Shown here: in pieces, positions 1,757 through 2,104 of the stretch
Layout: each line of letters opens with the position of its first letter
Position numbering within the stretch: the first letter of the stretch is position 1
Source of the DNA: a virus
Lineage: Duplodnaviria > Heunggongvirae > Uroviricota > Caudoviricetes
IMG/VR virus record: IMGVR_UViG_2698536484_000031
Reading direction: 5' to 3' (one strand)
DNA length: 4,543 bases
Position numbers and translations under genes: made by a program
Notes under the pieces: generated by a model
Databases searched by the model: none
What the model was told of the DNA's origin: nothing
Seen by the model: only the letters and a program-made list of their open reading frames with translations

Positions 1757-1845
1757 GATAAGCCTCAGGGAAAAGGGAAGACACTACCCCCGATAATTCA
1801 GAAACAAATCGAAATACATGAACTAAAGAAAAAACCACAACAAAC

Positions 1846-1917
1846 AGAAATAGAAATAGAAATAGAAATAGAAATAGAAATAGAAATAGAAATAGAAATA
1901 GAAATAGAAATAGAAAT
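1846..1917. repeat. Perfect hexanucleotide tandem repeat (AGAAAT)x12
   Basis: Read directly: 12 uninterrupted AGAAAT units from 1846 to 1917. Degenerate related sequence lies on the left flank (1801-1845, e.g. GAAACAAATCGAAATACATGAAC) and a partial unit follows at 1918-1920. Confidence 0.97.
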
Positions 1918-2104
1918 ATTAAAACAGACCACCACATTCCTGATGTCATACTCACTAAACAATTTTTCGACAACATGGTAGCTCATAGAACGTTATCGTG
2001 TAGACACCCTCTGCTACGTATTCGGTGTTCAGTGCAATATCTACAAATACTGGAAAAATCTAAAATCGAGGCAAGTTTTTGGTGATAACTATAGTTAGAC
2101 TATA

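Follow-up and report, generated by a model that had tools for sequence, protein, structure and literature searches.

The window, which is the whole stretch of DNA that was analysed (4,543 nucleotides of the IMG/VR record IMGVR_UViG_2698536484_000031), carries a perfect hexanucleotide array between phage nin genes and a large open reading frame. The question that this locus raises is whether the array acts on the expression of its neighbours or changes in length without consequence for them.

The hexanucleotide array and the typing locus VNTR-9

A regular expression located the array, and two published primer sites could be placed to its left:

1846-1917, no strand: perfect (AGAAAT)x12 microsatellite, 72 bp
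1918-1931, no strand: right flank common to O157:H7, 14 bp (ATTAAAACAGACCAC); beyond it lies the IS30 end in O157:H7 and the cargo side in the window
1750-1769, plus strand: Noller TR1 forward primer ACTGCATGATAAGCCTCAGG, exact match (primer from PMC2246123, Table 2)
1632-1658, plus strand: PulseNet VNTR-9 forward primer GCGCTGGTTTAGCCATCGCCTTCTTCC, exact match (primer from PMC3321953, Table A1)

The perfect twelve-copy AGAAAT array described in an earlier note on this DNA was recovered both by the regular expression and by TRF, which delimited it at positions 1842-1918 with a period of 6, 12.8 copies, 98% matches, a score of 147 and the consensus AAATAG. The range of 1801-1920 originally given does contain the array, but some 45 bp at its left correspond to non-repeat flank. 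The longest period-6 run in the window reaches 73 bases, versus a maximum of 18 and a mean of 12 in 2000 shuffles; the array is far beyond chance, and no second simple sequence repeat (SSR) of at least four copies and 12 bp was seen in the window. A+T makes up 83% of the array, and every unit includes a TpA step. All three minus-strand frames are open across it (ATT TCT, TTT CTA and TTC TAT, encoding IS, FL and FY, respectively), as had been claimed: the triplets themselves show all three, and the list of open reading frames shows two of them. On the plus strand, AAA TAG closes one frame. The related argument, that a unit of 6 bp leaves no place for on/off switching by frameshift, is likewise supported.

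As a motif the repeat is not family-specific. A search for the bare (AGAAAT)5 pattern in one genome per species returned at least 120 matches spread over unrelated phyla, with Proteus and Arsenophonus as the only Enterobacterales among the matches listed, and the motif is thus a generic microsatellite and no family marker. A flank-specific pattern (the array end plus ATTAAAACAG), also searched in one genome per species, gave 0 matches, so that these representative genomes lack the locus.

The earlier suspicion that this could be a typing marker of pathogenic E. coli proved correct. The unit reported by TRF, AAATAG with a period of 6, is the published unit of TR1, given together with the primers of Noller et al. 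in Table 2 of PMC2246123, and both forward primers match the window exactly; judged by these primer sites and this unit, the array is the MLVA locus named VNTR-9 (PulseNet), O157-9 (Keys 2005), TR1 (Noller 2003) and Vhec4 (Lindstedt 2003), names that are equated in Table 1 of PMC3768571 and in Table 1 of PMC3321953. This marker for typing E. coli O157 is scored routinely both by PulseNet and by the Japanese 17/18-locus scheme for EHEC, and on this identification the array is already known and not new.

The reverse primers of TR1 and VNTR-9, in contrast to the forward ones, found no site in the window, in the locus of strain RM9975 (L001) or in the E. albertii prophage (L007). Both are present in the locus of O157:H7 strain NE1127 (L002), where they lie inside the IS30 fragment. 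From the orthology of the array and of its 14-bp right flank, the missing sites are a property of the assay, and since they are absent a standard MLVA would score a strain of this kind as a null allele. The O157:H7 form of VNTR-9 shares with the window the unit, both forward primer sites, the hypervariability in whole units and a left flank (ninF remnant, HNH gene and ninG) of 99.5% identity; in NE1127 the agreement extends to the number of copies (12) and to the 14 bp that adjoin the array on the right. The difference starts at that point, with an IS30 fragment 14 bp to the right of the array in O157:H7 and an AT-rich module carrying a 590-aa gene in the window. The other hexanucleotide VNTRs of EHEC (O157-3, -10, -17, -19, -25 and -37) are comparable in having 6-bp units, slippage and a use as typing markers only, with no assigned function, but they are other loci with other unit sequences, several of them inside annotated ORFs. 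Rates for this class of VNTR are roughly 1e-5 to 1e-3 per generation (PMC3777172, PMC3768571, PMC3321953).

The prophage module around the array

To the left of the array, the window contains genes of the nin region, all on the minus strand, and the beginning of a module of different origin:

1-506, minus strand: Ser/Thr phosphatase gene
504-1106, minus strand: ninG (Pfam NinG, 2e-83)
1081-1647, minus strand: HNH/AP2 endonuclease gene, the left flank of the VNTR locus (Pfam HNH_3, 4e-11, and AP2)
1643-1756, minus strand: 38-codon chimeric ORF, formerly called NinF-like; only about 1643-1660 is ninF-homologous and the remainder belongs to the AT-rich module
1661-1845, no strand: left end of the AT-rich moron, from the ninF breakpoint to the array; identity is 99-100% among E. 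coli loci and about 88-93% with the E. albertii prophage

Alignment to a prophage with an intact ninE-ninF-HNH-ninG order (ETEC1717) showed that homology ends at about position 1660, and ordinary ninF|ninG junctions of other prophages match the window at 1619-1664 only; about six ninF codons are therefore left. The 38-codon ORF, which had no match in Pfam or NCBIfam, is accordingly a remnant in which about the last six codons (1643-1660) derive from ninF by the ETEC1717 alignment. The placement of the array between minus-strand nin genes and a large plus-strand ORF holds, but the NinF-like ORF that was to bound it does not exist as an intact gene. Neither does the composition change at the array, as had been stated: the break in composition and homology is found near 1661, and the module that extends rightward from there has 31-35% GC, with the array 185 bp inside it.

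The HNH endonuclease gene, between the ninF remnant and ninG, carries this annotation in all related genomes. The junction-matching window 1619-1664 spans the start of this gene. Its N-terminus, MAKPARRRC, resembles that of native NinG, and a homing endonuclease may thus have inserted itself into the 5' end of ninG.

In related prophages the order on the minus strand is cII-O-P-ninB-dam-ninE-(cargo gene, opposite strand)-array-ninF'-HNH-ninG-Q, and in phage SH2026Stx1 it runs on into stx1AB. The early-right operon of lambda is read from pR, which would here lie far to the right of the array. From the gene order in these loci, the module is a moron inserted in reverse orientation within the nin region of a lambdoid early-right operon.

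To the right of the array the module carries its cargo and is interrupted by an insertion sequence:

2105-2133, plus strand: best promoter candidate of the cargo gene, found by hand (TTGACG at 2105-2110, with TGTAAT at a spacing of 15 bp or TAATAA at 17 bp)
2234-4006, plus strand: cargo gene, a 590-aa orphan with a TTG start and an AGGAGG ribosome binding site at 2224-2229 (WP_000612805.1)
4441-4543, plus strand: left end of IS5, with 100% identity to IS5 copies; the insertion is at CTAG (4437-4440)

IS5 lies about 70 bp before ninE and truncates the right end of the module; as the complete genomes with the module (n=245) all match positions 1-4440 only, its insertion is specific to this strain.

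RefSeq/PGAP annotates the cargo gene as a CDS of 1773 nt (WP_000612805.1) in identical loci. In the E. albertii orthologue the TTG at 2234 is conserved, and the ATG codons at 2153 and 2209 are not. With TTG 2234 as the real start, the array ends 316 bp upstream of the start codon. E. coli and E. albertii agree at every position of a block at about 2085-2140 (100% conservation) and are far more divergent from about 2143 on; the block probably serves the cargo gene as its regulatory region. It also holds a direct repeat, ACTATA..ACTATA, together with the -35-like hexamer TTGACG. In strain RM9975 (L001, 9708-11506) the cargo gene is frameshifted into two CDS, although around the array this locus matches the window with 100% identity.

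The 590-aa protein found no match in Pfam, NCBIfam, PADLOC or the PDB sequences, and in PHROGs it falls into phrog_9230, with unknown-function families only. The family is narrow, with 18 clusters among 1.84 billion representatives in an exhaustive profile search. Its named homologues occur in E. coli, E. albertii, Salmonella enterica (chiefly serovars other than Typhimurium, and subspecies) and Providencia alcalifaciens, all of them enterics that bear a type III secretion system (T3SS), and one E. albertii copy adjoins nleF. The AlphaFold2 model, built with 13 homologues, is all-helical and too poor for a fold search (pLDDT 38), with very low confidence over the first ~160 residues; the N-terminus is rich in Ser and Thr. 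The protein may be a putative, so far unrecognised T3SS effector.

Distribution and variation in copy number

The array was found in two contexts. Next to the cargo gene it is present in 245 of the 5426 complete genomes of E. coli, among them O111:H8 strains and some of O157:H7, as well as in the Stx1-converting phages SH2026Stx1 and AU6Stx1 and, with about 93% identity, in the E. albertii prophage. Next to IS30 it is present in 281 complete genomes, of which those sampled were O157:H7 strains. In O157:H7 strain 2571 and similar ones, two VNTR-9 arrays reside in different prophages, one flanked by the cargo gene and the other by IS30. The cargo-bearing right flank is probably the ancestral context of VNTR-9.

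The array had been predicted to be hypermutable, and a comparison of copy number across related genomes had been proposed as the check. Five loci, including the window, show 0 mismatches in 1845 and 2523 bp of flank (about 4.4 kb), and direct counting in them gave 6 (L016), 7 (L015), 12 (the window), 17 (L014) and 23 (L013) copies. The copy number is thus not identical between identical flanks, and it changes by whole units. The spread in the cargo context was taken from a sample of 27 genomes, whose copies were derived from match spans, with the direct check confined to the five flank-identical loci; these spans differ from the query by multiples of 6 and give the following distribution:

Copies (genomes): 5 (1), 6 (2), 7 (3), 8 (5), 9 (5), 10 (4), 11 (3), 12 (2), 13 (1), 14 (1)

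The span of one further cargo-context genome implies 15 copies. Strains labelled O111:H8 have 7-11 copies and one labelled O111:NM has 8, SH2026Stx1 has 17 and the E. albertii prophage has 6. In the IS30 context of O157:H7, the spans imply 7-18 copies (five informative rows). Independent assemblies of the same strain agree, with 12 copies twice in 2013C-3277 and 6 in each of 96_1414B/P. Overall, the copy number ranges from about 4-5 to 23 with no preferred length, and no array shorter than about 4-5 copies was seen. The array is hypermutable in whole 6-bp units. In published surveys VNTR-9 had 6-23 repeats and 15 alleles, and with a diversity index of 0.90 it ranked first among eight loci (PMC3321953), and serial passage gave 1.3e-4 mutations per generation for Vhec4 (PMC3777172).

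Possible roles of the array

Taken together, the sequence comparisons make it most likely that the array is a neutral slippage tract with no selected function. In the nin region of a lambdoid prophage of the Stx1/effector type, most of ninF has given way to an AT-rich moron, which holds the non-coding hexanucleotide array about 185 bp inside its left end. The array gains and loses whole 6-bp units, presumably by replication slippage, and the copy number would drift, in a manner we take to be selectively neutral, with or without the cargo gene. Since gain and loss proceed by whole units, the array is among the most polymorphic sites of these genomes and is useful for strain typing. The array is kept in every examined member of the prophage module (the E. 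coli cargo context, O157:H7, E. albertii and the Stx1 phages). As far as these genomes can be read, such universal retention could reflect weak selection, or shared ancestry combined with high rates of gain and loss. From its position, upstream of a horizontally acquired gene and within the early-right transcription unit of the phage, the array may exert a modest cis effect on either, but the comparisons gave no sign of any activity beyond slippage.

An unlikely reading, although the one that fares best after neutral drift, makes the array an expression rheostat of the cargo gene, in which the length of an AT-rich tract (83% A+T, with TpA in every unit) grades transcription through H-NS nucleation, through melting or as a spacer between operator and promoter. 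The array does lie upstream of the cargo gene, on its presumed promoter side, but the best -35 candidate is about 187 bp away and the start codon 316 bp, distances that do not agree with the earlier description of an array near promoters. A consensus promoter/terminator scan of 1600-2300 found no sigma-70-like site (the candidate found by hand at 2105 was missed too), and returned one weak terminator-like match with a 5-bp stem at 1791-1775 on the minus strand. Nor is there reason to expect the divergent promoters that had been proposed, as by gene order the nin genes are part of the early-right operon read from pR. A search of the whole window against Rfam (E <= 1) gave only a sub-threshold match to a plant miRNA at 4036-4103, which is irrelevant here.

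The array accompanies the cargo gene in E. coli (245 genomes), in E. albertii and in the two Stx1 phages, and the copy number spans a wide range. However, O157:H7 has IS30 instead of the cargo gene and the DNA upstream of it, and there the array is kept and equally variable. Conversely, the island homologue of E. albertii (71% identical, the copy that adjoins nleF) has DNA homology only from window position 2216 on and no array, and the array is also absent upstream of the Salmonella homologues. Variability without the cargo gene, together with absence at the distant homologues, argues against a role tied to that gene. A period of 6 bp would moreover rotate successive A-tracts by about 206 degrees, from which no net intrinsic bend is expected, and the searchable literature holds no paper on a regulatory role of this VNTR nor any functional study of VNTR-9 that could be found.

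Tracts upstream of genes are known to set expression in other bacteria, as in the case of the 7-bp repeats of hmw1A/hmw2A in H. influenzae and of the TAAA tract of nadA in N. meningitidis. The array resembles them in being a hypermutable tract of short units upstream of a horizontally acquired or virulence-type gene. Those tracts, in contrast, lie in or beside promoters or operators that have been mapped, and their effects on expression have been measured, whereas the array of the window, known here from its sequence, is far from the sole promoter candidate and persists without the gene. Tracts of SSR contingency loci are located in a coding sequence as non-3n repeats or at a core promoter, and they travel with the gene that they control; the array is in neither position and does not travel with the cargo gene across homologous loci.

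A very improbable reading places the effect in the RNA. Here the (AUUUCU)n transcript of the minus strand, made from pR, would load Rho as a rut-like site and form an N-dependent barrier before ninG-Q (and, in Stx1 phages, stx1), with the number of copies tuning its strength. By gene order the array belongs to the cII-O-P-nin-Q transcription unit and lies downstream of some 2.3 kb of untranslated RNA that is antisense to the cargo gene. The 72-nt tract has no G, 12 C and 12 YC dinucleotides, with one UC per 6-nt unit; structure prediction leaves it wholly single-stranded, and across alleles its length goes from about 30 to 138 nt. Its C content, however, is only 17%, which is low in comparison with known rut sites, about 70-80 nt of untranslated RNA that is unstructured, rich in C and poor in G. 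Windows with a higher C/G ratio already occur upstream in the 2.3-kb antisense RNA (for instance 3.0 at 3270-3193), so that an additional rut site at the array would be redundant, and the absence of a preferred length among the alleles counts against this reading as well.

The last reading takes the array for part of a small minus-strand gene with a repetitive peptide product, (IS)n or (FL)n, and is almost certainly wrong: the array is non-coding. Two ORFs cover it:

1798-1986, minus strand: spurious low-complexity ORF, (IS)n, an annotation artefact
1707-1976, minus strand: second spurious ORF, (FL)n, an annotation artefact

The three open minus-strand frames, the 62-84-aa hypothetical protein that PGAP predicts in some genomes and the listing of VNTR-9 as "inside ORF (Z3935/Z3936)" (PMC3321953), from early O157 annotations, would speak for a gene, but the ORF called by PGAP measures 189, 219 and 255 nt (62, 72 and 84 aa) at 12, 17 and 23 copies and vanishes at 6-7 copies (L015, L016), and an ORF that is called only when the array is long, with a length that tracks the copies, is an annotation artefact of the microsatellite; the Z3935/Z3936 entry reflects the same sort of annotation. 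Moreover, no Shine-Dalgarno sequence was seen before either ATG, the product is pure low-complexity sequence, neither ORF matched a family in searches of the Pfam/NCBIfam type and of PHROGs, and O157:H7 has IS30 in place of the upstream part of the ORF.

With neutral slippage as the preferred account, an array that is a long-established epidemiological marker brings little new biology, and its value is mainly practical. The modest additions made here are the alternative right-flank context of VNTR-9 and its consequence for null alleles in MLVA: strains with the cargo context lack the reverse primer sites, which accounts for a locus that does not amplify in them, and this context may add to the high rates of null alleles at VNTR-9 (31.7% in one O157 survey).

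It is improbable that the copy number serves as a heritable and rapidly reversible dial on the transcription of the 590-aa gene or, in rut-like fashion, on the read-through to Q (and, in Stx1 phages, stx1). To our knowledge, E. coli is not known for SSR contingency loci, and for this reason a regulatory role, if true, would be notable, as it would make the array a bona fide SSR contingency element on an E. coli virulence prophage. Were the copy number such a dial, what is used routinely for typing would turn out to be a contingency element of a toxin/effector prophage.
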